From Candidatus Latescibacterota bacterium (GTDB taxonomy: Bacteria; Latescibacterota; UBA2968; UBA8231), in assembly GCA_965203355.1 (NCBI GenBank), contig OZ241889.1:3872001-3936000 (forward strand): a DNA stretch of 64,000 nt. Direction: 5' to 3'. The first letter of the stretch is position 1, and each line of letters begins with the position of its first letter. A program made the position numbers and the translations under genes. Positions 8,325 through 60,634 of the stretch are shown one piece after another. The notes below the pieces were generated by a model. The model was not told the origin of the DNA and searched no databases. It saw only the letters and a program-made list of their open reading frames with translations.

Positions 8325-9326
8325 ATGTCCAGCACCATCCCATACCAAGAGCACACCACCGAACCGGTCGATCTAGCGGAAGAAGAGGTGCCCACCATTG
8401 TGTTGCCCAATGGCGATCGGTTGGAGTTCCCCGGCTGCCGCGCCTACAAAATGTCCCGGTCCGAATTAGAAGAGTACGAGGGCCGCTATGAGTATTGGTA
8501 TGGTCCAACCGAAACCCTCATCGTCGTGGCCGACGAGCCCAGAGTCAGCGGGGACCACGAACTGCCCGCGCCCTATCTGATGCAACTAGTGCAACAAATT
8601 GCCGACGAGTGCGGGGCGCACTTTGTCCCCTTTGGCACGGTCAGCATCTGGAGTGCAAATGTCGAAGGCGTCCCTCGGGTCGCCATGCGTCCAGATCAGT
8701 GTCTTTACTTGCGTCCCCAGTCGGCGCGATTGCCCGACAAGAACGGGTTGAAGTTGGGCTTTCACACCTTGCCCGATGTGGTGTTGGAAGTCGATCACAC
8801 GACCGACATTCGGCGAGGAAAGCTGCATCAGTATGCGTTGTGGGGCTTTCCCGAAGTGTGGGTCGAAGTCCCCGAGGCGTACACGCCTAGCCGACGGGCC
8901 GGCAAGCCTCGATTGACGATCTATGTATTGGAAGGCAGTCAATACCGCGAAGCAGAAGCGAGCCGGGCGTTGGCGGGTTGGACGGCTAAAGAAATACACC
9001 GGGCACTCAACGAGCGGTTGAGGTGTTCGCCTGAGACGATAGCGGCACTGTTGCGGGTGGCGCGGGCACTAACGGCGCGTTTAGGCACGGCTGGTCCTGA
9101 AGGTACGCTGCGCTTGCGAATGCACCGTGAAGAAGGGCGTGAAGAAGGCAAACGAGATTTGTTGTGTCAGCAAGCGGCGTTGCGTTTCGGCGAGGATGTG
9201 GCCAAGGATCTGGCGGTGTTGCTCGCAGCCGTGTCGGGTGAAAACCTGACGCACGTGGGCGGCTGGATCGTAACGTCCCACAACGGAGATGAACTGCTCG
9301 GCCGAGTGCGCGAGAATGGGGCCTAG
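8325..9326 (+). CDS. Uma2 (DUF820)-like PD-(D/E)xK endonuclease-fold protein with an Rpn/DUF4351-like C-terminal tail
   Basis: PDQCLYL...LPDVVLEVDHTTD...KLHQYALWGFPEVWV is the Uma2 pattern; the tail reads REEGREEG...RFG. Codon style differs from the flanking suf genes. Confidence 0.75.
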   Translation: MSSTIPYQEHTTEPVDLAEEEVPTIVLPNGDRLEFPGCRAYKMSRSELEEYEGRYEYWYGPTETLIVVADEPRVSGDHELPAPYLMQLVQQIADECGAHFVPFGTVSIWSANVEGVPRVAMRPDQCLYLRPQSARLPDKNGLKLGFHTLPDVVLEVDHTTDIRRGKLHQYALWGFPEVWVEVPEAYTPSRRAGKPRLTIYVLEGSQYREAEASRALAGWTAKEIHRALNERLRCSPETIAALLRVARALTARLGTAGPEGTLRLRMHREEGREEGKRDLLCQQAALRFGEDVAKDLAVLLAAVSGENLTHVGGWIVTSHNGDELLGRVRENGA

Positions 9327-9446
9327 CTTGGCATTGATTTTGAATAAAATGTGGCCACCTACATAAACTTGACAAGTCCATCAACTTAGGCTCAAAGAAG
9401 AGCTACATTTATCCGCCCAACAATCAACTCTAACCGAAAGTGCCCT

Positions 9447-10196
9447 ATGCTCCACATCGAAAACCTCCACGTCGCCGTTGAAGACACCCCCATCCTGCGC
9501 GGTGTCACGCTGGCAGTACAACCCGGCCAAGTCCACGCCATTATGGGCCCCAACGGCTCGGGCAAAAGCACCCTCGCGCAAGTCCTCGCGGGCCGCGAAG
9601 GCTACGACATCACCGCCGGATCGGTCACCTACTGCGGCCAAGACCTGCTCGAACTCGCGCCGGAAGAACGGGCGTGTGCCGGGCTGTTTCTCGCCTTTCA
9701 GTACCCAGTGGAAATTCCCGGCGTCAACTCCACGTATTTCCTCCGCCAGAGCTACAACGAACTGCGCAAGCAACGCGGCGAGGAAGAACTCGACGCCATC
9801 GACTTTCTCGGCCTAATCCGCGAAAAGCTCGCCTTAGTGGAAATGGACGAGAGCTTCCTCAAGCGGTCGGTCAACGAAGGCTTTTCTGGCGGCGAAAAAA
9901 AGCGCCACGAAATTTTGCAAATGGCCGTATTGGAACCCAAGCTGTCGATCCTCGACGAGACCGACTCCGGCCTCGACATTGACGCGCTGCGGATCGTCGC
10001 CCAAGGCGTCAATCAGCTTCACACCCCGGACAAAGCCGTCGTCGTCGTCACCCACTACCAGCGCCTGCTCAACCACATAGTCCCGGACTTCGTCCACGTG
10101 CTCTACGAGGGGCGCATCGTTCAGTCGGGCGGCAAAGAGTTGGCGCTGACGCTTGAGGAAAAGGGGTACGACTGGGTCAAGGAGCAAGCAGCATGA
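9447..10196 (+). CDS. sufC: Fe-S assembly ATPase SufC
   Basis: GPNGSGKST, FLAFQYPVEIPGV, NEGFSGGEKKR, LDETDSGLDIDAL. Confidence 0.98.
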   Translation: MLHIENLHVAVEDTPILRGVTLAVQPGQVHAIMGPNGSGKSTLAQVLAGREGYDITAGSVTYCGQDLLELAPEERACAGLFLAFQYPVEIPGVNSTYFLRQSYNELRKQRGEEELDAIDFLGLIREKLALVEMDESFLKRSVNEGFSGGEKKRHEILQMAVLEPKLSILDETDSGLDIDALRIVAQGVNQLHTPDKAVVVVTHYQRLLNHIVPDFVHVLYEGRIVQSGGKELALTLEEKGYDWVKEQAA

Positions 10197-11485
10197 ACGG
10201 CGTCGCTCACTATCAGTCTTGCTTTAACCATCTCGTCGGCCCCGGGGCACTGCGGGCACTGCGGCAAAAGGCCATTGAGCACTTTGCCGACGCGGGCTTT
10301 CCCACGACCAAAGACGAGGAATGGGCTTTTACCAACATCGCCCCATTAACTCGAACCGACTTCGAGCTAGCCCCGTCCGCGCCCGCCCCGGCCGCTCTCG
10401 ACGACTACCACTACGGCCTCAACGGGCTGGTCTTTGTCGATGGTCACTTTGCGCCCGCGCATTCTCATCTCAACGGCCTATCGGCCGGGGTGCGCGTGGC
10501 GTGCTTGGGCGATGCCATTGCCGCAAACGGCGACTTGGTTTCGAGCGCCCTAGGCCAAGCCGCCGCCACCGAGAACGAGGCTTTCACCGCGCTCAACACC
10601 GCCTTCCTGCAAGACGGTGCGGTCGTCTATCTGCCTCGGGGTGCGGTCGTCGAGCAACCCATCCACTTGCTGTTTGTATCCACCGGCCAACGCGCCAACG
10701 TCATCTCCCATCCGCGCATCCTCGTGGTCGCCGAAGCCAACGCCCAAGCGACCCTAGTCGAAAGCTACGTCGGCTTGGGGGCGCAACCGTATCTGACCAA
10801 CAGCGTCAGCGAATTCTTCGTCGGCCCCAACGCCGTGCTCGACCACTACCGGATCCAGCGCGAGTCGGCCGCCGCCTTCCACATCGCGGCGACCCACGTC
10901 CGCGAGGAACGCGCCGCTCAATTCCGTTCGACCGCCATCGCGCTCGGCGGACGCCTCACCCGCCATCACGTCCACACTTCCTTAGTGGGCGAAGGCGTTG
11001 ACTCCACGCTCAACGGCCTCTACATCGAAGACGGAGCGCAACACGTCGATAACCACACGCTCATTGAACACGCCCAGCCTCATTGCCAGAGCCACGAGTT
11101 CTACAAGGGCATCCTCGGCGGCCGGGCCACCGGTGTCTTCCGCGGCAAAATCCACGTTCACCAAGCCGCGCAAAAAACCGACGCCTATCAAGCCAATCAG
11201 AATCTCCTGCTCTCCGAGACAGCGCAAATCAACACCAAGCCCCAACTCGAAATCTACGCCGATGACGTCAAGTGTTCGCACGGAGCTACCATCGGCCAAC
11301 TCGACGAAGACGCCCTCTTTTACCTGCGCTCTCGTGGCATGGGCCACCGCGAGGCCGTCCGAGTGCTGACGCGGGCCTTTGCGGGCGAAATCCTCGACCG
11401 CGTGCGCGTCCCCGCCCTCAAAGACCCACTCGACCGCCTAGTGGACCGCCGGCTGGAGCAAGCCACCGCTGAAGTTGCCCGATGA
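10193..11485 (+). CDS. sufD: Fe-S assembly protein SufD
   Basis: FPTTKDEEW, FTALNTAF, AQKTDAYQ, KPQLEIYADDVKCSHGATIGQLD, FYLRSRG. Confidence 0.96.
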   Translation: MNGVAHYQSCFNHLVGPGALRALRQKAIEHFADAGFPTTKDEEWAFTNIAPLTRTDFELAPSAPAPAALDDYHYGLNGLVFVDGHFAPAHSHLNGLSAGVRVACLGDAIAANGDLVSSALGQAAATENEAFTALNTAFLQDGAVVYLPRGAVVEQPIHLLFVSTGQRANVISHPRILVVAEANAQATLVESYVGLGAQPYLTNSVSEFFVGPNAVLDHYRIQRESAAAFHIAATHVREERAAQFRSTAIALGGRLTRHHVHTSLVGEGVDSTLNGLYIEDGAQHVDNHTLIEHAQPHCQSHEFYKGILGGRATGVFRGKIHVHQAAQKTDAYQANQNLLLSETAQINTKPQLEIYADDVKCSHGATIGQLDEDALFYLRSRGMGHREAVRVLTRAFAGEILDRVRVPALKDPLDRLVDRRLEQATAEVAR

Positions 11486-12711
11486 CCGCTTCCTTTGACA
11501 TTGCCAAGGTTCGCCGCGACTTCCCGGTCCTCGGCGAGAAAATCCGCGGCAAGGACCTCGTCTATTTCGACAACGGCGCGACCACCCAAAAGCCGCTGAC
11601 GGTCCTCTACGCACTCCAACGCTACTACGCCCGCGAAAACGCCAACATCCATCGCGGCGTCCACTTCCTCAGCCAGCAAGCGACCTTTGCCTACGAGCGC
11701 GGCCGCGGCCGCGTCGGCCAGTTTATCAACGCCCGCGAGAGCAGCGAGATCGTCTTTGTGCGCGGCACCACCGAGGCCCTCAATCTCGTCGCCCACAGCT
11801 ACGGCCGACCGCAGCTAGGCCCGGACGACGAGATCATCGTCTCCCAGCTAGAGCACCACTCCAACATCGTGCCGTGGCAAATGCTGTGCGCGGAAAAGGG
11901 CGCACACCTGCGGGTCGTGCCCATTAGCGATGCGGGTGAGTTCCTCTTCGACGAATACGAAAAGCTACTGTCCGAGCGCACCCGCATCGTCGCCATCGCC
12001 CACGCTTCCAACGCCCTCGGCACCATTCTGCCGGTAAAGGAAATCGCGGCCGCAGCCCATCGGCACGGCGCAGTCGTCGTGGTCGATGGGGCGCAAGGAG
12101 TGCCCCACCTGCCAGTCGATGTGCAAGACCTCGACTGCGACTTCTACGCCTTTTCCGCGCACAAGCTCTTCGGCCCCACCGGCATCGGCGTACTCTACGG
12201 CAAGCAGGCCCTGTTACGCGCCATGCCGCCCTACGAAGGCGGCGGCTCCATGATCGAAAAGGTGAGCTTTGCCGGCACCACGTATGCTCCCCCGCCGACG
12301 CGCTTTGAGGCCGGCACACCGCACATCGCTGGCGTCGTTGGCTTGGAGACCGCCATTGATTACGTCAACGCCGTGGGCCGCGAGCAGATCGCCGCGTACG
12401 AAGCCGACTTGCTCGCGTATGCAGACGCCGCTCTCGCCGCCATCCCGGGGCTGCGCCTGATTGGCACGGCCCGCGAGCGAGTGGCCGTGATCTCCTTCAC
12501 CCTCAGCGACATCCACCCACACGACATCGGCACCATCCTCGACGCCGAGGGCATTGCCGTGCGCGCCGGCCACCACTGCGCCCAGCCGACCATGCAGTTT
12601 TACCAAGTGCCCGCTACGGTGCGCGCCTCGTTGGCTTTTTACAACACGTACGCGGAAATTGACGCCTTGGTCGCGGCGTTGCACAAGGTCAAGAAGGTGT
12701 TTGATGAATAA
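11482..12711 (+). CDS. sufS: Cysteine desulfurase SufS
   Basis: YFDNGATTQKP, NIHRGVH, EHHSNIVPW, FSAHKLFGPTG (PLP lysine), RAGHHCAQP (catalytic Cys). Confidence 0.97.
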   Translation: MTASFDIAKVRRDFPVLGEKIRGKDLVYFDNGATTQKPLTVLYALQRYYARENANIHRGVHFLSQQATFAYERGRGRVGQFINARESSEIVFVRGTTEALNLVAHSYGRPQLGPDDEIIVSQLEHHSNIVPWQMLCAEKGAHLRVVPISDAGEFLFDEYEKLLSERTRIVAIAHASNALGTILPVKEIAAAAHRHGAVVVVDGAQGVPHLPVDVQDLDCDFYAFSAHKLFGPTGIGVLYGKQALLRAMPPYEGGGSMIEKVSFAGTTYAPPPTRFEAGTPHIAGVVGLETAIDYVNAVGREQIAAYEADLLAYADAALAAIPGLRLIGTARERVAVISFTLSDIHPHDIGTILDAEGIAVRAGHHCAQPTMQFYQVPATVRASLAFYNTYAEIDALVAALHKVKKVFDE

Positions 12712-12732
12712 AAAGAATGAGGCATTTCAACC

Positions 12733-13185
12733 ATGACTGAGCTTCGCGAACTGTACCAGCAGGTCATCCTCGATCACAACAAAAATCCGCGCAACTTTGG
12801 CAAGCTGCCCGCGGCCAATCGCATGCAGGAGGGCTACAATCCCCTGTGCGGCGATCACCTGCACATCTATCTCCACGTGGCCGACGAGCGGATTGACGAC
12901 ATTCGCTTTGACGGGTCGGGTTGCGCCATTTCCAAAGCCTCGGCTTCCCTGATGACCACCGCCCTCAAGGGCAAGCGTCCCGACGAGGCGGTTGCCCTGT
13001 TTGAGCAGTTCCACCAGATGGTGACCGCCCAGCCGGATGCGCCCGTCGATCACCAAGCCTTGGGCAAGATGGCCGTCTTCGCTGGGGTGCGCGAGTTTCC
13101 CATGCGCGTCAAGTGCGCGACCTTGGCTTGGCACGCCGCCAAAGCGGCCCTAGCACAAGACCCGTCGCCCGCATCCACCGAATAG
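12733..13185 (+). CDS. sufU: SUF system NifU-family scaffold/sulfur-transfer protein SufU
   Basis: LYQQVILDH, NPLCGD, GCAISKASAS, RVKCATLAW. Confidence 0.95.
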   Translation: MTELRELYQQVILDHNKNPRNFGKLPAANRMQEGYNPLCGDHLHIYLHVADERIDDIRFDGSGCAISKASASLMTTALKGKRPDEAVALFEQFHQMVTAQPDAPVDHQALGKMAVFAGVREFPMRVKCATLAWHAAKAALAQDPSPASTE

Positions 13186-13200
13186 CAAAGGAACCTTCCC

Positions 13201-13539
13201 ATGGAACTGTTGCACGAAAAAACCTTTCCTTCCGGCTCGACCGAGGCCCAAGTGGTGGCCGTGCTCAAGACCTGTTACGACCCTGAGATTCCGGTCGATA
13301 TTTTTGCCCTCGGCCTGATCTACGACATTGAGGTCAGCGACGCGCAGGATGTCCACGTGACCATGACCTTGACCTCGCCCGCCTGTCCGGTGGCCGGTAC
13401 GCTGCCGCCGGAAATCGAGCACAAGATCAAGGCCCATGTCCCGGGCATCGCCACGGCCCGGGTCGAGGTGGTGTGGGATCCGCCGTGGACGATCGACATG
13501 ATGACCGAAGGTGCCAAACTCGAACTAGGCATGATGTAA
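13201..13539 (+). CDS. sufT: DUF59/SufT-like Fe-S assembly protein
   Basis: YDPEIPVDIFALGLIY, MTLTSPACPVA, VWDPPW. Confidence 0.9.
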   Translation: MELLHEKTFPSGSTEAQVVAVLKTCYDPEIPVDIFALGLIYDIEVSDAQDVHVTMTLTSPACPVAGTLPPEIEHKIKAHVPGIATARVEVVWDPPWTIDMMTEGAKLELGMM

Positions 13540-13540
13540 C

Positions 13541-14011
13541 ATGAAACTCAGCTCAAGCGAAGAATACGGCTTGCGCTGCCTCTTGCAACTGGCTCGCCAA
13601 ACCCCGGGCAGCCTGACCATTCCGGAGATCAGCCAAGCCGAGGGGATCACCCATCACAACGTCGCCAAGCTCTTGCGCATTCTCCGGCAGGGCGGCTTTG
13701 TGGCCAGTGCCCGCGGCCAGCAAGGCGGCTACGCCCTCGCCAAGCCCCCGGACCAAATCGCCGTGGCCGACGCGGTCGCCGCGTTGGGCGGTCGCCTCTT
13801 CGACGCCGGTTTCTGCGATCACTTCGCCGGCAGCGCGGATTGCTGCACACACTCGCTGACGGCGTGTTCGGTGCGTGCGCTGTGGGAGCAAGTCCAGCAG
13901 GCCGTCGATCGCATTTTATCGCGCACCACCCTCGCCGACCTGCTCGAACAGGGCTACGCCCTCGCCGACGAAGAGGCGTTGCTCGATATATCGGAGAGTA
14001 CGCTGCGATGA
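13541..14011 (+). CDS. Rrf2-family transcriptional regulator (IscR/SufR-like, Cys-containing)
   Basis: EYGLRCLLQLA, wHTH with SARGQQGGYALA, and a C-terminal Cys cluster (FCDHF..DCC.H...CSVRALW); last gene of the suf cluster. Confidence 0.9.
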   Translation: MKLSSSEEYGLRCLLQLARQTPGSLTIPEISQAEGITHHNVAKLLRILRQGGFVASARGQQGGYALAKPPDQIAVADAVAALGGRLFDAGFCDHFAGSADCCTHSLTACSVRALWEQVQQAVDRILSRTTLADLLEQGYALADEEALLDISESTLR

Positions 14012-15513
14012 AAAAGGTCTTGCTGTGCTGGATCGGTGGAAAAGATTTGGATGCCTCACAAGGAAAAGATGTTGGCGAGGGTCCTATTGCACAGGCCGTA
14101 GAAAAACGCGGGTTTGACGAAGTATTTTTGATTTCAGACTACTCGCCCGACCGTGTAACTGCGTATGTCGAATGGGCTAAGAAAAGGAGCTCGACGCCGT
14201 ACCAACTACGCAGGGTGAAACTTTCAAGCCCGACTCACTTTGGCGAAATCTATGAGGCCGCGAGGGATGTGTGCAAAAAGGCTTTGGGCGACCAACCTGA
14301 TCAAGTCAAATTGACTTTTCACCTTAGTCCTGGTACGCCGGCGATGGCGGCGGTGTGGATCCTCCTAACGAAAATGGGCTTTCCCGCTAAATTAATCGAA
14401 TCTTCAAGAGAGCACGGCGTTCAAACGACGTCTGTTCCCTTTGAGATTCAGGCAAAATATCTGTCCGATCTACTGGCCAAACCCGACGCACAACTCCGCT
14501 CGGCCAGCGCAGGAAAACCCGCAGAAACGGCAGCTTTTGGCGACATAATCTACCGCAGTCAGAAGATGGCGGATTTGGTCGAAAAAGCGAAGCGAGTCGC
14601 AGTGCGGAACGTTCCCGTTTTGCTCGAAGGCGAGTCCGGCACTGGGAAGGAACTTTTTGCCCGCGCCATCCACAAACATAGCCTAAGAAAGGATAAGCCA
14701 TTTATCGCGGTGAATTGCGGTGCAATACCGCGCGATCTGGTGGAAGCCGAACTGTTTGGACACAAAAAAGGCGCGTTTACCGACGCACATGCTGAGCGTA
14801 AAGGTCATTTTGAACAGGCCAATGGCGGTACGCTCTTTTTGGATGAAATCGGCGAGTTACCCAAAAATATGCAGGTGAAATTGTTGCGCGTCCTCCAAGA
14901 AGGCGAGTTCCTCCCCCTCGGTGCATCCACACCCACCAAAGTAGATGTACGCATTGTGGCGGCGACAAATCGGAATCTCGTTGAAGAAGTACGCGAAGGA
15001 CGATTTCGAGAGGACTTGTTTTATCGGATTGTAGTGGCTTACCTCAAACTGCCGCCTTTGCGGGGCCGCGAGGGCGATTTGGGCATGCTGATCCGCCATT
15101 TTATTGATAAAATCAATCAGGAATACGAAAAGGAATACGAAGGACAGCCCGGTTACAAACGTAAAGAAATTTCCCCTAACGGAAAAAATGTTCTCATAAA
15201 CCATTCTTGGCCGGGCAATATACGCGAGTTGGAAAACACCCTGAACCGCGCCATGCTGGCCGACAGCAAAATTCTCGACGAACAAGATATTGAAGATGCA
15301 CTCTTACGCATCGACCATAAGGGCGGCAAAGATATACTGAATCGCCAGTTAGGTGGGGATTTTAACCTAAAGAAACTCATTAGCGAGGTCGCAAGGCACT
15401 ATCTTAAGCGAGCCGACAAAGAATCTCAAAACAACAGAACAGAAGCCGCAAGACTGTTAGGACTTCCCTCTCGTCAGACGTTTGACAACTGGAAGGAGAA
15501 GCACCAAGCATAG
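14008..15513 (+). CDS. Sigma54-dependent enhancer-binding protein with an N-terminal CARF/RtcR-like sensor domain
   Basis: ATG at 14008 overlaps the rrf2 stop. N-terminal VLLCWIGGKD...LTFHLSPGTPAMAAVWILL is RtcR/CARF-like. AAA+ motifs GESGTGKE, GAFTDA, LFLDEIG, RFREDLFYR, WPGNIRELEN. Fis-type HTH NRTEAARLLGL. Confidence 0.88.
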   Translation: MKKVLLCWIGGKDLDASQGKDVGEGPIAQAVEKRGFDEVFLISDYSPDRVTAYVEWAKKRSSTPYQLRRVKLSSPTHFGEIYEAARDVCKKALGDQPDQVKLTFHLSPGTPAMAAVWILLTKMGFPAKLIESSREHGVQTTSVPFEIQAKYLSDLLAKPDAQLRSASAGKPAETAAFGDIIYRSQKMADLVEKAKRVAVRNVPVLLEGESGTGKELFARAIHKHSLRKDKPFIAVNCGAIPRDLVEAELFGHKKGAFTDAHAERKGHFEQANGGTLFLDEIGELPKNMQVKLLRVLQEGEFLPLGASTPTKVDVRIVAATNRNLVEEVREGRFREDLFYRIVVAYLKLPPLRGREGDLGMLIRHFIDKINQEYEKEYEGQPGYKRKEISPNGKNVLINHSWPGNIRELENTLNRAMLADSKILDEQDIEDALLRIDHKGGKDILNRQLGGDFNLKKLISEVARHYLKRADKESQNNRTEAARLLGLPSRQTFDNWKEKHQA

Positions 15514-15527
15514 ACATTTGGCAAAGC

Positions 15528-15543
15528 TGGCACGGAATTTGCT
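15528..15543 (+). promoter_or_regulatory. Sigma54 (-24/-12) promoter
   Basis: TGGCAC-GGAAT-TTGCT matches TGGCAC-N5-TTGCW exactly, with GG-N10-GC spacing, 14 nt after the stop of the enhancer-binding protein gene. Confidence 0.85.
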
Positions 15544-15611
15544 TCTCTTCTATCAAGGATATGAAGCGAGGCTCAAATCACCCACCACCCGAAAGAGAAA
15601 GGAGAAATCTA

Positions 15612-15698
15612 ATGCAAAATGTGCTGCCAGCCATACTAGTTTCATTGGCTATATATGCCGGTCAACGCATCATTGATAAGATCGTTGATGGGCTTTAG
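15612..15698 (+). CDS. Small hydrophobic peptide 1, 28 aa (MQNVLPAILVSLAIYAGQRIIDKIVDGL)
   Basis: AAGGAG 7 nt before the ATG; frame conserved with its paralog at 15779. An in-frame upstream ATG at 15561 is an alternative start. Confidence 0.65.
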   Translation: MQNVLPAILVSLAIYAGQRIIDKIVDGL

Positions 15699-15778
15699 CA
15701 CGTAGCTCAACAGCTCGCTGGGCAGCGTCAATTCGTTGCCCAATCACCCATCACCCCAAAGAGAAAGGAGGTAATCTA

Positions 15779-15856
15779 ATGTTGCCAGCGATATTAATTC
15801 CACTGGCTATATATGCCGGTCAATGCATCATTGATAAGATCATTGATGAGCTTTAG
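15779..15856 (+). CDS. Small hydrophobic peptide 2, 25 aa (MLPAILIPLAIYAGQCIIDKIIDEL)
   Basis: AAGGAGGT SD; paralog of peptide 1 with frame and stop codon preserved. Confidence 0.65.
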   Translation: MLPAILIPLAIYAGQCIIDKIIDEL

Positions 15857-15869
15857 CATATAGCCAATA

Positions 15870-15905
15870 TCTCGCTGGGCAGCGTCAACTCGTTGCCCAG
15901 CGAGA
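15870..15905 (+). other. Stable RNA hairpin after peptide 2
   Basis: TCTCGCTGGGCAGCG-TCAACT-CGTTGCCCAGCGAGA forms a 15-bp stem with one G:U pair. There is no U-tract, so it is not a classical intrinsic terminator. Confidence 0.7.
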
Positions 15906-15940
15906 GTGCCTTCGTCTAAACCAAACAGAAAGGACTGATT

Positions 15941-16099
15941 ATGGCGCGAAGAACACGCGACGACGCACGGATAAGAACAGTCGAGAAAAAGCTGGGAATC
16001 GGGAACAGCCTCACGAATCCCAACGGACGCAATGCCCGTTCCGATAAAAAACTGGGGAATCTCCGTAAGAGTTGGGAAAAGTCTGGTAAGAAGAAATGA
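15941..16099 (+). CDS. Small basic protein, 52 aa (MARRTRDDARIRTVEKKLGIGNSLTNPNGRNARSDKKLGNLRKSWEKSGKKK)
   Basis: AAAGGA SD before the ATG. Internal repeat RDDARIRTVEK / RSDKKLGNLRK. Below the size cut-off of the ORF track. Confidence 0.65.
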   Translation: MARRTRDDARIRTVEKKLGIGNSLTNPNGRNARSDKKLGNLRKSWEKSGKKK

Positions 16100-16135
16100 A
16101 GTGTCGCAAAATCTATAATGAAAGGAGGTGATTCT

Positions 16136-16219
16136 ATGATAATATGGCAACCGACAGGCCCTTATATCGCTCTTGCCATCTTAAAATCATTATACAAATG
16201 GCTGGCGAAGCGGCGATAG
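16136..16219 (+). CDS. Small Fst/Ldr-like membrane peptide, 27 aa (MIIWQPTGPYIALAILKSLYKWLAKRR)
   Basis: Very strong SD AAGGAGGTG. A Pro-led hydrophobic helix is followed by W-L and a basic tail, as in type I toxin peptides. Confidence 0.62.
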   Translation: MIIWQPTGPYIALAILKSLYKWLAKRR

Positions 16220-16229
16220 CAGTTTGTGA

Positions 16230-16271
16230 TTCTATCAGGGGGTGGAGATTTACCTTCGTCTCCTGATAGAA
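16230..16271 (+). terminator. Hairpin closing the small-gene array (possible terminator)
   Basis: TTCTATCAGGGGGTGGAG ... CTTCGTCTCCTGATAGAA pairs fully on the + strand if G:U is allowed; followed by ATTTCTT. Confidence 0.55.
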
Positions 16272-16276
16272 ATTTC

Positions 16277-16305
16277 TTGACATGTCTTCTTGACACACGT
16301 AGGTT
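16277..16305 (+). promoter_or_regulatory. Sigma70-type promoter for the ATPase gene
   Basis: TTGACA-N17-TAGGTT, 34 nt before the ATG at 16340. TTCTTGACA is directly repeated within it. Confidence 0.55.
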
Positions 16306-16339
16306 TTCAACGTTCTTCCACTTAACTCGTGAGAAAATC

Positions 16340-17935
16340 ATGGCTATTAAATCTATAACCATAGAAAATTTCAAGGGCATCGGTGACGCCGTGACCATTC
16401 CGATTCGCCCGATCACTTTGCTGTTTGGTAAAAACAGCTCGGGTAAGTCAACAGTGTTGCAGGCCCTGTTATACATGTCACACGTAATAAAATACGAGGA
16501 TCCAGATCCATATAGTACAGATATAGATCGAGGTTATATTGATCTAGGTGGTTTTTATTCTTTAGTACATCGTCATGAATTGGATCGGAATATTCGCATC
16601 CGTATTGAATTCGGCGGTCAAGACCTTGAAAGATTTTATGAAGCTGAAGGTCCTTTTTTAAAGGGGTTACGAGACCCTATCCGTCGTGACTTGTACGGAT
16701 ATCTAAAATCCGTGTGGATAGAAGTTGTAACAGGTTGGAATGCTGAAAAAGATTATACCGAGGTGCTGTCGCTCAGCTTGGGCTTGAATGGAATAGAGTG
16801 GTATTGTAAAACAAATAAAAGACCGGAGATATTTCCTTCTATAAATACAATTGGATCGAATCGCACACAATGGGTTAGTAACCACGGTAGATACGACGGT
16901 ACCAATTATTATAATATTGAGCACCCCATCATTATCGATAATGTAGACAATAAAATGAAGCAAAACATTTTATTAGCACTCACCACTAGGAAGCTAGCCA
17001 AAGATCTTGATCCTCTGTTAGCATCTATACGTCACTCGTATTATAGTATCAGAGATAAGCTGATAAAAATTGGAGTAAGCGTATCGACCAGTATAAGATA
17101 TTTGGGACCAATCCGAAAATTACCCCCTCGCAACTTTGCCCCACAAAAGACACCTAATGAATCAAAATGGGCAACAGGACTAGAGGCATGGAACATACTT
17201 GGTAGAGAAAGAAAATCTCTGATGATCGAAAGTATAAACTACTATATGAAAGATATTTTGAAGCTCGGTTACACTATTAAAAGAAAAGAATACATCTTGC
17301 TGGATATAGATAGCAAGATCATGAAAAACATGGAAGAATCTGACAGCATTAACCGATTAAAAGAGTTACCTCGCCAAGTTAGACTGAAGCTCCACAGCGA
17401 AAAGAATGACGTTGATTTAGATCCCTTAGATGTCGGTTTGGGAATTTCCCAAGTTATTCCCGTTTTGGTGGGAATTAAAAATTTTGCTACGAAGAATATT
17501 TTTGCTGTCGAAAATCCAGAGATTCATCTTCACCCTGCCGCCCAAGTCGCTCTAGGCGACGTGTTTATTGATAGCAAAAATCCAAACAATACTTTACTCA
17601 TTGAGACGCATTCTGAACATCTGTTGTTGAGATTACTTCGACGTGTGCGCGAGACCAATGTTCGTATCTCAGAAAAGTATGATAAGCTGGTAAGGGAAAG
17701 GCGACAAAATTCAATAAATCCTATAGATGAAGATGAGATGCTAGAGCTGGATATTCGTTCTAGGGAATCTGAGCATCCATATCACCACTTAGAGCCAGAC
17801 GATTTATCAATAGTCTATGTCATGCCAACATCAGAGGAAGTCAAGTTAACTCTATTTACTGTAACAGGTGACGGCGACTTCGAAGAACTTTGGCCAGAAG
17901 GCTTTTTTGAAGAACGTATGGAGGAGCTTTTCTAA
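16340..17935 (+). CDS. ABC-type (AAA_15/AAA_21-like) ATPase with a C-terminal DUF3696-like segment
   Basis: IKSITIENFKGI; Walker A GKNSSGKS; YLGPIR; signature DVGLGISQV; Walker B VENPEIHLHP; H-loop IETHSEHLLLR; C-terminal WPEGFFEE. AT-rich. Confidence 0.88.
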   Translation: MAIKSITIENFKGIGDAVTIPIRPITLLFGKNSSGKSTVLQALLYMSHVIKYEDPDPYSTDIDRGYIDLGGFYSLVHRHELDRNIRIRIEFGGQDLERFYEAEGPFLKGLRDPIRRDLYGYLKSVWIEVVTGWNAEKDYTEVLSLSLGLNGIEWYCKTNKRPEIFPSINTIGSNRTQWVSNHGRYDGTNYYNIEHPIIIDNVDNKMKQNILLALTTRKLAKDLDPLLASIRHSYYSIRDKLIKIGVSVSTSIRYLGPIRKLPPRNFAPQKTPNESKWATGLEAWNILGRERKSLMIESINYYMKDILKLGYTIKRKEYILLDIDSKIMKNMEESDSINRLKELPRQVRLKLHSEKNDVDLDPLDVGLGISQVIPVLVGIKNFATKNIFAVENPEIHLHPAAQVALGDVFIDSKNPNNTLLIETHSEHLLLRLLRRVRETNVRISEKYDKLVRERRQNSINPIDEDEMLELDIRSRESEHPYHHLEPDDLSIVYVMPTSEEVKLTLFTVTGDGDFEELWPEGFFEERMEELF

Positions 17936-17937
17936 CA

Positions 17938-18945
17938 ATGATCTATGAATATGCACTGGATCCCGAACTTGTTGTAACATGGAGTTCTGAAGATTGTGAC
18001 TACTTCATCGACAAGTTTGGCTTTGATAGGGATGGCAACGCAACAGGTCGCATAATATCTAAATATCCATATCCTAATAATAACCGCGACATAAGTTGGG
18101 ATAATATAGTTAGCAAAACGCTCAAAAGAACTTGTCGTACTAGTAAAGAAAAAAAAATCATAGACGTGTTATTGGAAGAAATAAAAAAGGAAAAAAGGAG
18201 TATCACTCGTTCTATTACATCTAGGGATTGGGATCCGAATAAATCATGGCTTGAAAACGCCGAGGCTGAGCAGGAAGCAAATATTAACCGTCCTTTTCGT
18301 GCGATTCTTGCCCGTGAAAACCCAAGAAAAAAAGACTACGTGATTACTAATACAAGGCCTGCGTCCCTCAAAGATCAATCGCCTTGTCTTTGGCGTGTAT
18401 CGAGAGGAATAACCATAGCTCGAAGCACAAAGGTAATGGCAGAGTGCTTTGGTCCAATACTGAGATGTGCAACTTTAATCCTTTTTATAGATCCAAATTT
18501 CGATCCAAAAAAGTCTAAATGGAGAAAACCGTTGAGAAAATTCCTAGAAATTATTTATGATTCAAAGCATCGTGGTGTCATAGTTCAATACCTTACCTCT
18601 AAGAAAATATTTAGTAGCCAAAATGTATGTCAATGTGAATGGAATCTTTTTTGCAAAAAATGCAAATCCCTCAAGGAATACGTTGGCTCTGGATGTGATC
18701 TAATCGTCTGCTGTCTTAACAAAAGAAATAGTGATCAAGAACTCCATGACCGATTTATCCTTACTAACATTGGTGGGGTAACGATAACTTACGGTTTAGA
18801 TATTGGTAGAGGTAAGAATAACATCCATCTTATGGACAGAGAATCCTACAATACTCATTTTAAGCTGTATCGTACACATGTTGAGAAGGAATTTGAGTGT
18901 AAAAAGTGGATGGACGACTCGCGACACTCGAAATCGACATCCTAA
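17938..18945 (+). CDS. Hypothetical ATPase partner with a C-terminal HDRFILT motif (PLD-like nuclease fold candidate)
   Basis: 335-aa AT-rich ORF starting 2 nt after the ATPase stop. FIDPNFDP and LHDRFILT...G...GLD motifs resemble single-motif PLD-like domains. Confidence 0.65.
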   Translation: MIYEYALDPELVVTWSSEDCDYFIDKFGFDRDGNATGRIISKYPYPNNNRDISWDNIVSKTLKRTCRTSKEKKIIDVLLEEIKKEKRSITRSITSRDWDPNKSWLENAEAEQEANINRPFRAILARENPRKKDYVITNTRPASLKDQSPCLWRVSRGITIARSTKVMAECFGPILRCATLILFIDPNFDPKKSKWRKPLRKFLEIIYDSKHRGVIVQYLTSKKIFSSQNVCQCEWNLFCKKCKSLKEYVGSGCDLIVCCLNKRNSDQELHDRFILTNIGGVTITYGLDIGRGKNNIHLMDRESYNTHFKLYRTHVEKEFECKKWMDDSRHSKSTS

Positions 18946-19439
18946 TTCCGGGGCGCGGCGAGGTCCCTTTCAGCGATCTCCACACTAGCCCCAACCCCGA
19001 TAGCCGCGGATCGCTCCTTCGCCCTTGCCTGCTGCCCTTTTTCAGTGTATTTATAATCCACTTTTGTATTCGTCTTGGCTGAGCAAAAACAAACCCAACT
19101 CATGGCTGAACATTACTATCGATCACTAGCAAAAAATCGCGCTGGGAGGTTTTGATGGGCACTTGGGCACGAGCATGGACACCAACTTTGACCGAGCGAG
19201 AAACCGTGCTTTTCGTTTTGAATGAGGACGAGCTAAATGCACGCTCGCCAGAGCACCGTTGATTTTTCAACGAAGTGTATCATCCGCAATTTGACAGAGA
19301 TCGCTGGAAAAGCACCTAACCCAGCATTTGCATTGGACAACATGGCCAATTTGGCGCGAGTTAATGAACCGATGAAATACAACGCGCATTTTGGGGGCCA
19401 AAAAATGGGTCGTAGAGCATTCACAAAGGCTGAATAGCA

Positions 19440-20435
19440 ATGGGAGATTCAGGTAGTACAGTGGCAGTGACCGGTGCTGCGGGCTTTCTCGGCAGCCACA
19501 TATGCCGCGCCTTGTTGCACGGCGGATATGCGGTGCGCGCTGTCGCGCACGAGGGCAGCAATCGCAAACTTCCCGCGGACCTGAGCGATCAGGTCGAATG
19601 GCGACTGGCCGATGTCCGCAATCCCGAGTCGTTAAACCAAGCATTCCAACACGCCCACGCCATCGTTCACAGTGCTGAAATTGCGACAGTTGACGCCGAT
19701 CCCAAAGGGTTGGCAGATGCAATCAACTTGACGGGTACTCGCAACGTGATTCAAGCATGTATTAGCACCGGCGTCCACCGACTGATACACATCAGTTCCA
19801 TACACGCATTCAGCCCGCTACGCGGAACGATTCTGAGTGTCAGTTCAAAACTGGGCCAAGACTCCAAGATCCCCTACACGGCCACCAAAGCCGAAGCGCA
19901 CGTAAGCGTACTCGATGCGGCGAGAAGCGGTTGGCTCAATGCATCTATCGTCTGTCCGGCAAACCTCATAGGTCCCGGCGACAGCGAGCCGACCCGCGCC
20001 GGTCGCATCCTGCTGGCCATAGCGCACAAGCGACTCCCGTGGCTCATCAACGGAGGGGGCTGGTGGAGCGACGTGCGAGATGTGGCAAATGCCATCGCCC
20101 ATGCGGTGGGAGCCAACGAATACGGGGGCGAGGTTCACTTTACGGCCGGGCGATACGCAAAAATCCGCGGACTAGCGCACCTGTGTTCTCAGGTTTTGGG
20201 ACATAGCGTGATGCGCCCGGTCATACCCTACTTTCTAGCGCGGACAGGTTTGCCCTTGATCAAGCGGAACCCACCGTTTTTTTACTCCCGCCATTCACTC
20301 AAACTCCTGCGCGACAGCCCGCTATCCGTTGATGAATCCTCGGCGCGGAATCAACTCGGATACGAACCGCGGCCCCTTAACGAATCGGTCCGCGACGCCC
20401 TCGATTGGTTCGCCGCGCAGGGAACGCGCTTGTAA
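19440..20435 (+). CDS. NAD-dependent epimerase/dehydratase (dihydroflavonol-reductase/HpnA-like)
   Basis: VTGAAGFLG, HISSIHA, YTATK (YxxxK), DVRDVA. Confidence 0.85.
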   Translation: MGDSGSTVAVTGAAGFLGSHICRALLHGGYAVRAVAHEGSNRKLPADLSDQVEWRLADVRNPESLNQAFQHAHAIVHSAEIATVDADPKGLADAINLTGTRNVIQACISTGVHRLIHISSIHAFSPLRGTILSVSSKLGQDSKIPYTATKAEAHVSVLDAARSGWLNASIVCPANLIGPGDSEPTRAGRILLAIAHKRLPWLINGGGWWSDVRDVANAIAHAVGANEYGGEVHFTAGRYAKIRGLAHLCSQVLGHSVMRPVIPYFLARTGLPLIKRNPPFFYSRHSLKLLRDSPLSVDESSARNQLGYEPRPLNESVRDALDWFAAQGTRL

Positions 20436-20447
20436 CCGGGCAGGTTT

Positions 20448-21860
20448 TCACCCCGGCAGCGGATCTTCGCCCGCGTATGGCTGGTCGCCCACTTTTTCCT
20501 GTAGGCGGCGCAATTCCCCGCGCAACTGGCGCACCACTCCGGCATAGGCCGGGTCGCGGTACACATTGACCAGTTCGCACGGATCTTTTTCCAAATCGAA
20601 CAACTCCCATTCCGGCTCTTTGGGATCATTTAGGGCACCGGGCTGGCCCAAGGCATCGGCATAGTAGTAGATGAGCTTGTAACGCAAGGTGCGGACTCCG
20701 TAGTGCGCGTACACGTGGTGGTGCGCCAAGTGCATCCAGTAGCGATAGTACATCACCGTCTGCCAGTCGTCCGGGGTCCGGCCCGCTAGCACCGGGCGCA
20801 TGGAGCGGCCTTGGAACGAATCGGGTATGGCGACGCCGGCGTAGTCGAGGAAGGTGGGCGCAAAGTCCACGTTGAGGATCATGTCGGCGCTGACGCTGCC
20901 GGCGGCAATGGCGCGGGGATAGCGGATGAGGAAGGGCATGCGCAGCGATTCCTCGTACATGAAGCGCTTGTCGTACCAGCCGTGATCGCCGAGGAAAAAG
21001 CCCTGATCCGAAGTATAGACGACGATGGTGTCGTCGGCTATGCCCTCGGCGTCGAGATAATCGAGTACGCGGCCCACGTTGTCATCGACTGCGGCGACGC
21101 AGCGCAGATAGTCTTTTATATAGCACTGGTACTTCCACTTTTTCTCCTCTTCCGGGGACAGTCCTGTGGGTACGGGCCGCTTGAGATCGGTGGCGTTGAG
21201 GTCGCGATCAACGCGCATTTTGGCCGCTCCGGCGGCCGCCGCTCGATTCTGATAGTCGTCGGCAAAAGTCGCTGGCTCGGGCAGGTCTTCGCCTTCGTAA
21301 AGATGAGCGTGTTTTTCGTCCGGCTCCCACGGGCGATGCGGGGCCTTGTGGTGGTACATCAGGCAAAAGGGCCGCTCCTTGTCGCGTGCCCTAAGCCAGT
21401 CGAGCGACAAGTCGGTGATAATGTCGGTAGTATAGCCCTCGTATTGGACCTTGTCGCCGTTGCACACCATCTCCGGGTCGAAGTACGGGCCTTGTCCCTG
21501 GAGGATGTTGTAGTAGTCAAAGCCGGTGGGCCAGTGGGCCGGCCCCTCGCCTAGGTGCCATTTGCCGACGATCGCGGTCTGATAACCAACGCCCTGCAAG
21601 AGCTTGGCGAAGTTGAGCTGGCGGTTGTCGTGGCGCGAGTCCAAAGTGGTCATGCCGTTGACGTGATTGTACGTGCCGGTGAGGATGGTGGCGCGGGAGG
21701 GGCCGCAAATCGAATTGGTGCAAAAGCAGTTGTCAAAGCGCATGCCACCTTGGGCAATGCGATCGAGGTTGGGCGTGGTGTTGATGCGGCTGCCGTAGCA
21801 ACTCATGGCGTGGGCCGCGTGATCGTCAGTCATAATGAAGAGAATATTGGGACGAGACAT
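20448..21860 (-). CDS. Formylglycine-dependent sulfatase
   Basis: MSRPNILFIMTDDH, CGPSRATILTG (CxPxR), GKWHLG, YTSDQG, DKRFMYEES. SD AAGGAG upstream of the ATG at 21860. Confidence 0.95.
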   Translation of the reverse strand: MSRPNILFIMTDDHAAHAMSCYGSRINTTPNLDRIAQGGMRFDNCFCTNSICGPSRATILTGTYNHVNGMTTLDSRHDNRQLNFAKLLQGVGYQTAIVGKWHLGEGPAHWPTGFDYYNILQGQGPYFDPEMVCNGDKVQYEGYTTDIITDLSLDWLRARDKERPFCLMYHHKAPHRPWEPDEKHAHLYEGEDLPEPATFADDYQNRAAAAGAAKMRVDRDLNATDLKRPVPTGLSPEEEKKWKYQCYIKDYLRCVAAVDDNVGRVLDYLDAEGIADDTIVVYTSDQGFFLGDHGWYDKRFMYEESLRMPFLIRYPRAIAAGSVSADMILNVDFAPTFLDYAGVAIPDSFQGRSMRPVLAGRTPDDWQTVMYYRYWMHLAHHHVYAHYGVRTLRYKLIYYYADALGQPGALNDPKEPEWELFDLEKDPCELVNVYRDPAYAGVVRQLRGELRRLQEKVGDQPYAGEDPLPG

Positions 21861-22072
21861 AGAACTCCTTGCGAAAGGGTCAGTAGATGAGCACAGCCCC
21901 ACCCTCACCGGCGGCACCGAGCGCAAGGTCTGTCCATCGGTGCGCAGACCATCACGCCCTCCTGTTGAACGGCGCTCAATATAATGCAATGCACAACGGC
22001 CAGCTATTGACGCGAGCCCGTCTGGCTCCCTTTATATGCCAGTCTTCCAACCCCAACAAGGAGCTTTCCCAC

Positions 22073-22798
22073 ATGGGCAAATTAGGGTACGACGATACCC
22101 CGCTATTACCCAACTCCCCCTATTGCGTCCACGATCACCGGCGACCCGCCCCGGCGGTCGTAACGCCCGGCCACCACAACAGCCCCCCTTCAGACGCGGT
22201 CATCCTCTTCGACGGCACCCATCTCGACGGCTGGCAGAGCACCAACGGCGGCGACGCCCCTTGGCAAGTAGCCGACGGCTACATGGAGGTCGTGCCCCGG
22301 TCCGGCGATATGGTCAGCACAGCGCGCTTTGGCGACGTCCAGTACCATCTCGAATTTGCCTGCCCCAGCGAGGTCAAGGGCGAGAGCCAAGGGCGCGGCA
22401 ACAGCGGCGTCTTCCTCATGAGCCTGTACGAGATCCAGGTCCTCGACGGATACGACAACCCCACGTATGCCGACGGCACCACAGCCGCCGTCTATGGCGA
22501 GTATCCGCCGCTGGTCAACGCCTGCCTCCCGCCCGGCCAGTGGCAGACCTACGACATCTTCTGGACGGCCCCGCGCTTCAACGGCGCCGAGTTAGTCAGC
22601 CCAGCCTATCTCACTTTGGTCCACAACGGCGTCTTGGTCCACCACCACGTCGAGGTTTTAGGCCCCACCGGCCATCGCGGCCTCTATCGCTACGAAGTGC
22701 ATCCTCCCACCGGCCCGCTCCGCTTGCAAGATCACGGCGACTTAGTGCGCTATCGCAATATCTGGGCGCGGCCCGTGCAGGGATACGACGAAGGCTGA
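22073..22798 (+). CDS. DUF1080 (3-keto-disaccharide hydrolase-like) protein
   Basis: PPSDAVILFDG, GQ.RGNSGVF, YEIQVLD, WQTYDI, LQDHGD.VRYRNIW; AAGGAG SD. Confidence 0.9.
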   Translation: MGKLGYDDTPLLPNSPYCVHDHRRPAPAVVTPGHHNSPPSDAVILFDGTHLDGWQSTNGGDAPWQVADGYMEVVPRSGDMVSTARFGDVQYHLEFACPSEVKGESQGRGNSGVFLMSLYEIQVLDGYDNPTYADGTTAAVYGEYPPLVNACLPPGQWQTYDIFWTAPRFNGAELVSPAYLTLVHNGVLVHHHVEVLGPTGHRGLYRYEVHPPTGPLRLQDHGDLVRYRNIWARPVQGYDEG

Positions 22799-27418: not shown

Positions 27419-27434
27419 AGCCGTTCGAGCACTG

Positions 27435-29189: not shown

Positions 29190-29309
29190 CGGTTGCGCCC
29201 ATACACTTGTAGTTAGGTGTGTTGCAGCATAGCTCGCTAGCCGCTCACTTCCAGTCGATTTGAGTCCACCGCGTTGCAAATGGACCTTTAGCTTTACTGC
29301 GAAACCACC

Positions 29310-40376: not shown

Positions 40377-46042
<5,666 letters not shown>

Positions 46043-46046
<4 letters not shown>

Positions 46047-59285: not shown

Positions 59286-60368
<1,083 letters not shown>

Positions 60369-60462: not shown

Positions 60463-60634
60463 GTGTTTTTTCATTGAAGCAGATTAAACTGCGCTAGCTA
60501 CTTGTAACAAATGCCGTGCCAAACGGCAAAAATACGCGCAATTTATTGTTTAATAATGGGTTAGAAAAAGAATGAAAAGGGTGCAAAAAGCAAAAACTGG
60601 CAACTACGCGAAACAACACTGTGAAGAAAAGGGG

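Follow-up and report, generated by a model that had tools for sequence, protein, structure and literature searches.

What does a sigma-54 activator of the RtcR-like type, built from a CARF domain, an AAA+ domain and a helix-turn-helix (HTH) domain, switch on first? The question is raised by a locus in a Candidatus Latescibacterota bacterium (GenBank assembly GCA_965203355.1, contig OZ241889.1, positions 3,872,001 to 3,936,000 of the forward strand; this whole stretch of 64,000 nucleotides (nt) is called here the window, and coordinates refer to it unless another locus is named). In the window, the gene of such an activator and the gene of an ABC-type ATPase lie on the same strand, with a gap of 826 bp between the regulator stop (15513) and the ATPase start codon (16340). 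Judged from sequence features, positions 15528-16278 of this gap very probably form one unannotated transcription unit, running from a sigma-54 type promoter to a hairpin with a T-run, and little doubt attaches to the predicted operon and its small genes being real. The regulator, the promoter and the array of small genes together span about 2.3 kb.

The first-pass annotation had described the gap as looking empty in the track of open reading frames (ORFs) and as hiding four small genes of 28, 25, 52 and 27 amino acids (aa). All four ORFs are present at the places given for them (Table 1). However, the gap is not free of other reading frames, since a 64-aa ORF on the plus strand and ORFs of 118 and 104 aa on the minus strand overlap it. 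The minus-strand open stretches vary in frame and length among related loci, and the pattern of variation by codon position agrees with the plus-strand frame. In each of the four small genes, a Shine-Dalgarno (SD) sequence precedes the ATG at a spacing of 6-7 nt, being AAGGAG, AAGGAGG, AAGGA and AAGGAGG from ORF1 to ORF4. The pattern AAGGA-N5-9-ATG occurs 20 times in the window, counting both strands, against 6.08 expected, and none of 100 shuffles reaches 20. Four of these 20 sites are those of the small ORFs, all on the plus strand and within 540 nt, which is in line with the proposal that so many strong, co-oriented SD-ATG pairs are unlikely to arise by chance. ORF1 and ORF2 belong to one family (A), sharing 85 nt at 87% identity. 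The tandemly duplicated unit, which takes in their leaders and hairpins, is about 160 bp long (87-93% identity), and the two ORFs differ by an in-frame indel of 9 nt at the start. ORF3 represents a second family (B), and ORF4 is a divergent member of a third one (C).

The relatives of the locus were collected by tblastn of plasmids with the CARF domain, giving five homologues, and by a genome scan, giving 30 loci (L006-L035, the window's own genome not being among them). In the closest genome locus the CARF domain is 79% identical, the relatives here being Latescibacterota-type metagenome-assembled genomes. Eight related loci carry small ORFs with SD sites at the same position, and both the reading frames of families A, B and C and these sites are preserved across the eight, as would be expected from genuine genes. 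Family A recurs in L006, L007, L008 and L033, the L007 peptide being 80% identical to ORF2, and family B in L006, L007, L008, L010, L020 and L033. Family C is found in L006, L007, L009, L010, L013, L020 and L033, with its first codons also at the contig end of L008, and a fourth family (D, 29-32 aa) in L009 and L013 only.

Substitutions among these homologues argue for translation of the array. Family B is its best-conserved gene, with seven orthologues 75-94% identical and 33 of 52 columns invariant. Its summed Nei-Gojobori pN/pS is 0.21 in frame, compared with 1.17 and 1.03 off frame, and its variable columns are distributed 11/14/29 over the three codon positions. The plain pN/pS ratio failed to separate the frames for families C (0.65) and A (0.58), and because of this a placement test was used, where the observed substitutions are compared with the same substitutions put at random positions in 300 simulations and scored by protein similarity. 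In frame, the z values were 24.2 for family B, 11.9 for family C (seven members other than ORF4) and 6.1 for family A, while the two off frames gave 1.1 and -3.6, 1.0 and -3.3, and 3.1 and -2.8, respectively, all of these values being inflated because the pairs share ancestry. For the three families, the in-frame protein similarity lies above all 300 simulations. Moreover, no premature stop occurs in the observed pairs, whereas the simulation expects one in 18/42, 20/42 and 3/12 pairs, and indels within the ORFs are multiples of three only. For example, aligning ORF4 with the seven other family C genes requires a single indel within the ORF, an in-frame insertion of 9 nt; ORF4 matches the hidden Markov model of family C, in which it is itself included, at E 1.8e-12. 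What counts against the coding reading, besides the inflation of z and the undivided pN/pS of A and C, is that one off frame of family A also reaches z 3.1 and that this family comprises four distinct sequences only. Thus graded, families B and C are predicted with high confidence to be protein-coding, and family A is probably protein-coding.

A TGGCAC-N5-TTGCT promoter of the sigma-54 type had been proposed at the head of these genes. It sits 15 nt past the regulator stop, its GG and GC dinucleotides are exactly 10 bp apart, and TGGCACGGAATTTGCT is the sole exact match to TGGCAC-N5-TTGCW in the window on either strand. When up to one mismatch is allowed, the window has five matches where 2.38 are expected, a number reached in 8 of 100 shuffles, so that the motif count alone is not significant; the weight of the promoter rests on its position and conservation, not on the pattern count. 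In 29 of 36 sources (the window and 35 loci), a -24/-12 match of 9-11/11 with correct GG and GC lies close to the regulator stop, mostly at -18 to +44 nt from it and in a few cases out to +344, and four of the five plasmid homologues have such an element next to the regulator. The seven exceptions include L005 and L026 (8/11), L030 (7/11) and L027, where the contig ends within the regulator. The remaining ones, L032, L033 and L034, were scored as exceptions because a broken regulator frame made the stop coordinate wrong, and L033 has a 10/11 site at 11897 all the same. A control scan of 1,267,326 positions, both strands included, returned 44 matches of at least 10/11, 27 of them being regulator-adjacent, 6 co-oriented deeper in the same islands and 11 elsewhere, with a background rate of 0.017 such matches per 480 nt. 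Given its presence in 29 of 36 sources and the enrichment in the control scan, the promoter is therefore a conserved feature of this regulator family, and the proposal stands, with an activator gene adjacent to the site. From the GC at 15541-15542 and the textbook -24/-12 geometry, transcription would be expected to start near 15554. As a separate observation, a TGGCA-like second half-site abuts the -24 element (TGGCAAAGCTGGCAC, 15518-15533) and is kept in L006, L007, L008 and L010.

Hairpins had been placed behind ORFs 1, 2 and 4, and all of them are found, only the last one being followed by a T-run. The first is a truncated copy of the family A hairpin, the junction of the tandem duplication falling in its 3' arm. 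The second has 14 pairs, two of them with compensatory changes among six sequences; it lacks a T-run, is not flagged by the terminator scan and is possibly an element of mRNA stability or processing. The third was flagged by the terminator scan at 16230-16271 with 18 pairs, and is kept in 8 of 8 loci with a long gap, where 16 pairs are predicted and 8 of these show compensatory double changes. Behind it, an invariant TTTCTT overlaps a conserved TTGACA, and the sequence TTTCTTGACA is shared by all eight aligned loci and recurs in front of other ATPase modules. The TTGACA-containing element at 16277-16305 was not listed by the promoter scan and has a poor -10 element, so it would be, as a weak inference, the own promoter of the ATPase operon. 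The family C stop codon precedes the terminal hairpin by 10-18 nt, and, judged from this spacing alone, translation-coupled attenuation at the hairpin appears unlikely. An 11-nt repeat (15548 and 16230) was considered as a source of pairing between the 5' and 3' ends or as an insertion footprint, and was rejected: the shared word stands out in the window only (2 of 1000 shuffles) and in none of the seven other loci.

Table 1. Features of the regulator-array-ATPase locus in the window, with the internal cassettes of related loci in their own coordinates
Feature	Position	Strand	Evidence
RtcR-like sigma-54 activator, CARF + AAA+ + HTH, 501 aa	14008..15513	+	profile searches
Sigma-54 type -24/-12 promoter TGGCACGGAATTTGCT, TGGCAC-N5-TTGCT	15528..15543	+	consensus match 11/11
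ORF1, family A, 28 aa, hydrophobic N-terminal half, amphipathic acidic C-terminal half	15612..15698	+	AAGGAG 7 nt upstream; orthologues
Hairpin after ORF1, truncated copy of family A hairpin	15719..15742	+	-20.6 kcal/mol, z -3.94
ORF2, family A, 25 aa	15779..15856	+	AAGGAGG 7 nt upstream; ORF1 paralogue
Hairpin after ORF2, conserved	15870..15905	+	-32.7 kcal/mol, z -6.73
ORF3, family B, 52 aa, net charge +12	15941..16099	+	AAGGA; orthologues
ORF4, divergent family C, 27 aa, hydrophobic core, basic C-terminus	16136..16219	+	AAGGAGG 7 nt upstream
Intrinsic-terminator-like hairpin and TTTCTT run after ORF4	16230..16278	+	-25.8 kcal/mol, z -4.15
Possible sigma-70-type promoter for ATPase operon, TTGACA-17 nt-TAGGTT	16277..16305	+	conservation; poor -10
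ABC-type ATPase (AAA_15/AAA_21), NsnB-like, 531 aa	16340..17935	+	Pfam, PADLOC
Partner protein, 335 aa, PLD-fold C-terminal domain	17938..18945	+	AF2 + Foldseek
Sister-clade internal cassette, L014	16139-16720
Sister-clade internal cassette, L015	16055-16850
Sister-clade internal cassette, L016	16666-17900
Sister-clade internal cassette, L017	15101-15900
Sister-clade internal cassettes, L035	14695-14905, 17999-18840

The content of the array varies among the related genomes. The window carries A-A-B-C; L006, L007 and L033 have A-B-C, as does L008 up to the end of its contig; L010 and L020 have B-C; and in L009 and L013 family C is followed by the hairpin and then by D. Together with the duplication that gave ORF1 and ORF2 and with further cassettes in other islands, this variation bears out the view of a modular, expandable array. 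The effector role also proposed for its products is a prediction. In a sister clade (L011, L012, L014, L015, L017, L018 and L035), the promoter lies 218-242 nt from the ATPase start, no SD-led ORF of at least 15 aa is found at this first promoter in any of the seven loci, and no stable hairpin is found there in the two examples that were folded (z +1.16 and -0.47). Because the sister clade is without both, between a fixed promoter and the ATPase leader, the small ORFs and the hairpin would come and go together. Extra sigma-54 promoters exist inside the islands of L014 (16139), L015 (16055), L016 (16666), L017 (15101) and L035 (14695 and 17999), and all but L035 14695 precede other SD-led small ORFs. 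These encode a basic protein of 103 aa that matches GIY-YIG marginally (E about 1e-4), 41-45-aa proteins of membrane-like character and family C-like peptides of 28-31 aa, and each internal cassette is then followed by a hairpin, TTTCTTGACA and another ATPase gene. The promoter at L035 14695 has no small ORF and leads straight into a hairpin-like element and the next ATPase gene. Also, about 100 nt upstream of the internal promoters resemble the 3' end of the regulator gene, which would suit an enhancer copied along with the promoter.

The regulator itself matches the PADLOC model PDLC01995 (RtcR_PspF2 CARF_AAA_HTH) at E 3.6e-195, residues 2-500 aligning with positions 1-479 of 481, and is thereby a full-length member of that family. 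With the NCBIfam RtcR equivalog it scores 353.1 bits, under the cut-off of 650 bits, and is not assigned to that equivalog. Pfam returns Sigma54_activat (1.9e-72) and AAA_lid_14, and the protein has a Walker A motif (GESGTGKE), a Walker B motif (LFLDEI) and an L1 loop (GAFTDA). This loop, the sigma-54 contact loop, corresponds to residues 254-259 (window 14767-14784) and retains the F-T pair. Homologues that align from residue 1 agree with a start at 14008. An enhancer or upstream activator site was sought in the regulator gene, with raised third-position conservation as the only outcome and no clear palindromic site. The raised conservation concerns the stretch 15151-15264, where third codon positions are conserved at 0.86-0.93 compared with a mean of 0.73 in 16 loci; the palindrome GAAATTTC falls inside it, and the stretch could be an embedded DNA signal, for example a putative binding site of the activator. 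The regulator frame is broken in L033 (10001-11900), L032 and L034, where 72, 82 and 102 codons precede the first stop. Promoter and A-B-C array are intact in L033 all the same, and the broken frame would reflect a pseudogene or an assembly error.

Downstream of the array, the ATPase matches Pfam AAA_15 (1.1e-27) and AAA_21 (1.1e-20), as well as the PADLOC models NsnB (2.8e-44, residues 3-528) and AriA (6.3e-31). The partner protein encoded next to it has no match in Pfam, PADLOC or PHROGs. Its AlphaFold2 (AF2) model has a mean predicted local distance difference test (pLDDT) score of 56.9, the C-terminal domain reaching about 70-83 and the N-terminal half staying below 50. Foldseek gave 85 matches in the PDB at E<=0.001, and those listed belong mainly to the PLD superfamily (FAM83 DUF1669, bacterial PLD, Nuc, Zucchini, PLD3, MITD1 and NucT), TrmB-family regulators and a polyphosphate kinase being also among the matches listed. 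An H270-x-R272 motif is invariant, and the modelled fold suggests that the partner is probably a nuclease effector. Some related islands hold up to three ATPase-partner pairs in tandem.

The surroundings of the array point to defence. In the syntenic loci, the suf genes upstream of the island are 85-98% identical, the regulator 72-76%, the ATPase 37-63% and the partner 29-38%, as one would expect where a fast-evolving defence island occupies a fixed site. All five plasmid homologues precede co-oriented cargo of the defence type, either type I restriction-modification genes or a VWA-PP2C-kinase-AAA set. Across the plasmids and the distant genome loci, homologous regulators head type I restriction-modification, RmuC, HIRAN and VWA-PP2C-kinase cargo.

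Both the regulator family and its association with defence cargo have been published (PMC4012209; PMC11090510). As far as the available text of these reports goes, RtcR-like CARF activators are predicted to drive downstream defence genes through sigma-54, and the promoter conservation described above agrees with that prediction. The "superoperons" reported there, including restriction systems and CoCoNuT (Makarova 2014, PMC4012209; Bell 2024, PMC11090510), share with the window the regulator family and the co-oriented defence cargo. However, the published cargo consists of large annotated defence genes, and the portions of these papers that were available mention no arrays of 22-53 aa with a hairpin of their own. 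No description of promoter-proximal microprotein arrays for RtcR-like or other sigma-54 regulators was found in the literature, in texts available in part, and supplementary neighbourhood tables might list some.

A comparison with the classical RtcR/rtcBA system shows the same CARF, AAA+ and HTH architecture, an adjacent sigma-54 promoter presumably opened by the activator and, from what is accessible of one report, sensing that is probably of the nucleotide or RNA-end type (PMC11090510). Nonetheless, in the window neither rtcA nor rtcB is nearby, the best regulator model is that of a separate family (RtcR_PspF2), the promoter is co-oriented directly after the regulator, and the first products are microproteins. 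The PspF/psp system also has an AAA+ sigma-54 activator of the PspF type controlling small membrane-associated proteins, as the consulted part of the source has it (PMC4012209). In that system, however, PspF is without a sensor domain and is restrained by PspA, whereas the window regulator has a CARF domain; no homologue of PspA, PspB or PspC was found in the neighbourhood or among the small ORFs, and the locus is not assigned to the Psp system.

The pair behind the array resembles Menshen, where, in the text available, NsnB is an ABC ATPase with a DUF3696 tail, the effector NsnC is of the PLD type with an H-D-R motif and the sensor NsnA is a ParB-DUF262 protein (PMC12065111). The window ATPase matches NsnB, its homologue in L007 carries the DUF3696 tail, and the partner, with its PLD fold and H-x-R, is like the PB-PLD1 type of NsnC effector domain (same source, as far as available). 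Yet DUF3696 was not detected in the window ATPase, a sigma-54 microprotein cassette lies ahead of the module, and no NsnA was found in window positions 8325-22798 or in the first two downstream ORFs of 22 related loci. An N-terminal inPIN-like domain, the other part expected of an NsnC effector, would fall in the half of the partner modelled below pLDDT 50. The NsnB match and the PLD-fold partner therefore make the pair Menshen-like, but without NsnA.

The peptides themselves have no relatives among named families: Pfam, NCBIfam, PADLOC and PHROGs returned nothing significant for any small ORF, the best PHROG matches being to families without function (phrog_24383, E 0.023; phrog_14140, E 0.19). 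Family B had no match at E<=1 in plasmids and phages, and the sole PDB sequence match for it, ribosomal protein L32e (E 0.34), was treated as chance and discarded. The ESM Atlas returned only nameless clusters of 44-57 aa at 0.91-0.92, a recognition value below the mark and weak. The region had no Rfam match at E<=1 and no match in E. coli genomes. Families A and C are peptides of 22-28 aa with an uncharged hydrophobic core of 13-14 residues (up to 18 in the two A copies of the window), whose best 13-residue Kyte-Doolittle means are 1.3-2.7 and whose mean Eisenberg hydrophobicity is 0.83-0.89. The tail of family A is amphipathic and acidic, with a hydrophobic moment up to 0.84, and that of family C has a basic cluster at the C-terminus. 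In contrast to these hydrophobic peptides, family B is hydrophilic.

In size (about 25-30 aa), hydrophobic core, charged ends and predicted induction by a stress regulator, families A and C are like the type I toxins TisB and DinQ, as these are presented in the accessible text (PMC11575346, PMC3567139), and both families fall under the type I toxin definition of a small hydrophobic protein of <60 aa. The difference is that a sigma-54 activator stands here in the place of LexA and that several unrelated peptides share one polycistronic unit. An antitoxin of the antisense or small RNA kind was sought, and neither a sigma-70-like promoter on the minus strand of 15550-16300 (by a crude scan, and the promoters of this phylum may differ) nor an Rfam match was found.

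How these parts would work together can be put as a mechanism. The CARF domain would sense infection or RNA damage through a nucleotide-type signal, possibly, as the analogy to RtcR suggests, RNA ends with a 2',3'-cyclic phosphate, and the AAA+ ring would open the silent sigma-54 complex, so that transcription would run from near 15554. A burst of family A and C peptides would then insert in the membrane and stop growth, in the manner of small membrane toxins induced by stress. The same burst would yield family B, acting on a conserved target in the cell, for example nucleic acid or the translation apparatus, a target suggested by the fact that the conservation of this family (75-94%) equals or exceeds that of the regulator (72-75%). 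Partial read-through of the terminal hairpin would raise the NsnB-like ATPase and the PLD-fold nuclease, which otherwise would perhaps have their own weak promoter. Sigma-54 promoters stay silent without their activator; this silence, the defence context, the type of peptide and the turnover of the cassettes are the reasons for which a membrane-active arrest is favoured. The reading as a whole, a sigma-54 operon of microproteins whose membrane-active peptides and basic cofactor serve defence or a stress response, is moderately probable. That families A and C act on the membrane and arrest growth, taken by itself and predicted from their sequences, is put forward tentatively. Doubtful is the wider proposal that the dedicated regulon of the regulator consists of recombining promoter-microprotein cassettes, one before each Menshen-like module, in which tightly silent sigma-54 promoters cage several unrelated membrane-killing peptides and the highly conserved basic protein of 52 aa, the latter shutting down a core process such as translation, for abortive infection.

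Several observations weigh against this picture. The chief weaknesses of the sigma-54 claim are the atypical GAFTDA loop and the lack of rpoN in the window, as seen in domain and family searches of what is a part of the genome only. The loop, compared across L006-L035, varies within this clade, where GAFTDA, GAFTDS, NAYTGA, GTFANA, GVFTGA and GAFSNA occur, and is the canonical GAFTGA in distant relatives and plasmids. For the peptides, a core of 13-14 residues is on the short side for a helix that crosses the membrane. AF2 models family B as two helices at low confidence (pLDDT 57.8). Moreover, neither an antitoxin nor an immunity gene nor an antisense promoter was found at the array, and thus nothing other than promoter silence would explain how a toxic product is restrained. 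Family C-like copies are degraded in two internal cassettes, the one at L035 18568-18640 having an internal TAG and the one at L016 17608-17793 having lost its stop and reading on through the hairpin, which may be assembly errors or real decay. All the genome relatives, finally, are metagenome-assembled genomes.

The main rival accepts that the small proteins are real and sigma-54 induced, and gives them a protective role, Psp- or Rtc-like, where the envelope would be stabilised and ribosomes or RNA shielded. It is consistent with the envelope functions that sigma-54 regulons commonly serve, in the available text of one source (PMC4551910), with the repair and membrane-stress operons controlled by the closest named relatives of the regulator, RtcR and PspF, and with a family B conserved at least as well as the regulator, as for a protein working on conserved host machinery. 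However, homologous regulators head restriction and defence cargo and not housekeeping repair, the island evolves fast while the genes on either side are conserved, PspA, RtcA and RtcB are all missing nearby, and cassettes are gained, lost and degraded among close relatives, which would be unusual for a core protective function; a protective role is thus considered unlikely. A different possibility, quite improbable, is that the ORFs are translated but act in cis, as upstream ORFs tuning the passage through the hairpin into the ATPase-nuclease operon, the peptides having no function. The position of the array between an inducible promoter and the ATPase operon would suit such a role, as would the short distance between the family C stop and the hairpin and the seven sister-clade loci that run from promoter to ATPase with neither small ORFs nor, in the two folded, a stable hairpin. 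Nevertheless, the amino acid sequences are constrained in the annotated frame, beyond mere openness, three or four unrelated families are retained, and a ribosome at the family C stop would, from the spacing, cover no more than the first few of the 16-18 stem pairs.

It is also conceivable, and very improbable, that the peptides are exported, as leaderless bacteriocins or phenol-soluble-modulin-like peptides, instead of acting inside the cell. A tandem array of hydrophobic or amphipathic peptides of 22-28 aa, each with its own ribosome-binding site, fits this idea and resembles the staphylococcal psm-alpha operon. Against it, the island has no transporter or immunity gene, the adjacent ATPase is without a membrane domain and matches defence ATPases, and the cassettes always accompany ATPase-nuclease modules. 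The least credible alternative takes the region as a non-coding leader or small RNA, in which the ORFs would be chance features of a structured transcript. Three stable hairpins, a high nucleotide conservation among relatives and the lack of protein family matches could be read in this way, but the negative Rfam search, the variation at third positions with the low pN/pS of family B, the frame-specific conservative substitutions in A, B and C, the strong SD sites at fixed spacing and the exclusively in-frame indels all speak for translation.

At this locus, the predicted promoter-proximal products are those of four genes overlooked by annotation pipelines, from a set of at least three unrelated microprotein families. 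Should the peptides be effectors, defence islands may hide an inducible class of microprotein toxins, with sigma-54 control as a general route of silencing. In the doubtful wider form of dedicated cassettes, abortive infection would be under transcriptional control and carried out by genes that escape annotation because of their small size, a layer of defence undescribed for RtcR-like regulators. Moreover, the compact system offers a readout for the unsettled ligand of the RtcR-type CARF domain.

Outside the island, the window is ordinary chromosome, with recA, radA, prfA and selB among its genes. One-mismatch sigma-54-like motifs at 60338-60353 (plus strand) and 60506-60521 (minus strand), in or near the recA-radA intergenic region, are possibly due to chance. 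In the suf operon, a gene for a putative endonuclease of the Uma2 family (8325-9326) is placed between a sufB-like gene (6802-8265) and sufC (9447-10196), an arrangement found also in L008 and L013. The segments 27354-31135 and 33455-34408 hold an SNF2-type helicase, a C5 cytosine methylase and unassigned ORFs, with an N6/N4 DNA methylase standing separately close by, and may represent another cluster for restriction or defence. Finally, positions 40377-46046 hold a single ORF of 1889 aa with two sets of UvrA domains and ABC_tran, together with weaker matches to P-loop domains of the STAND or NACHT type.

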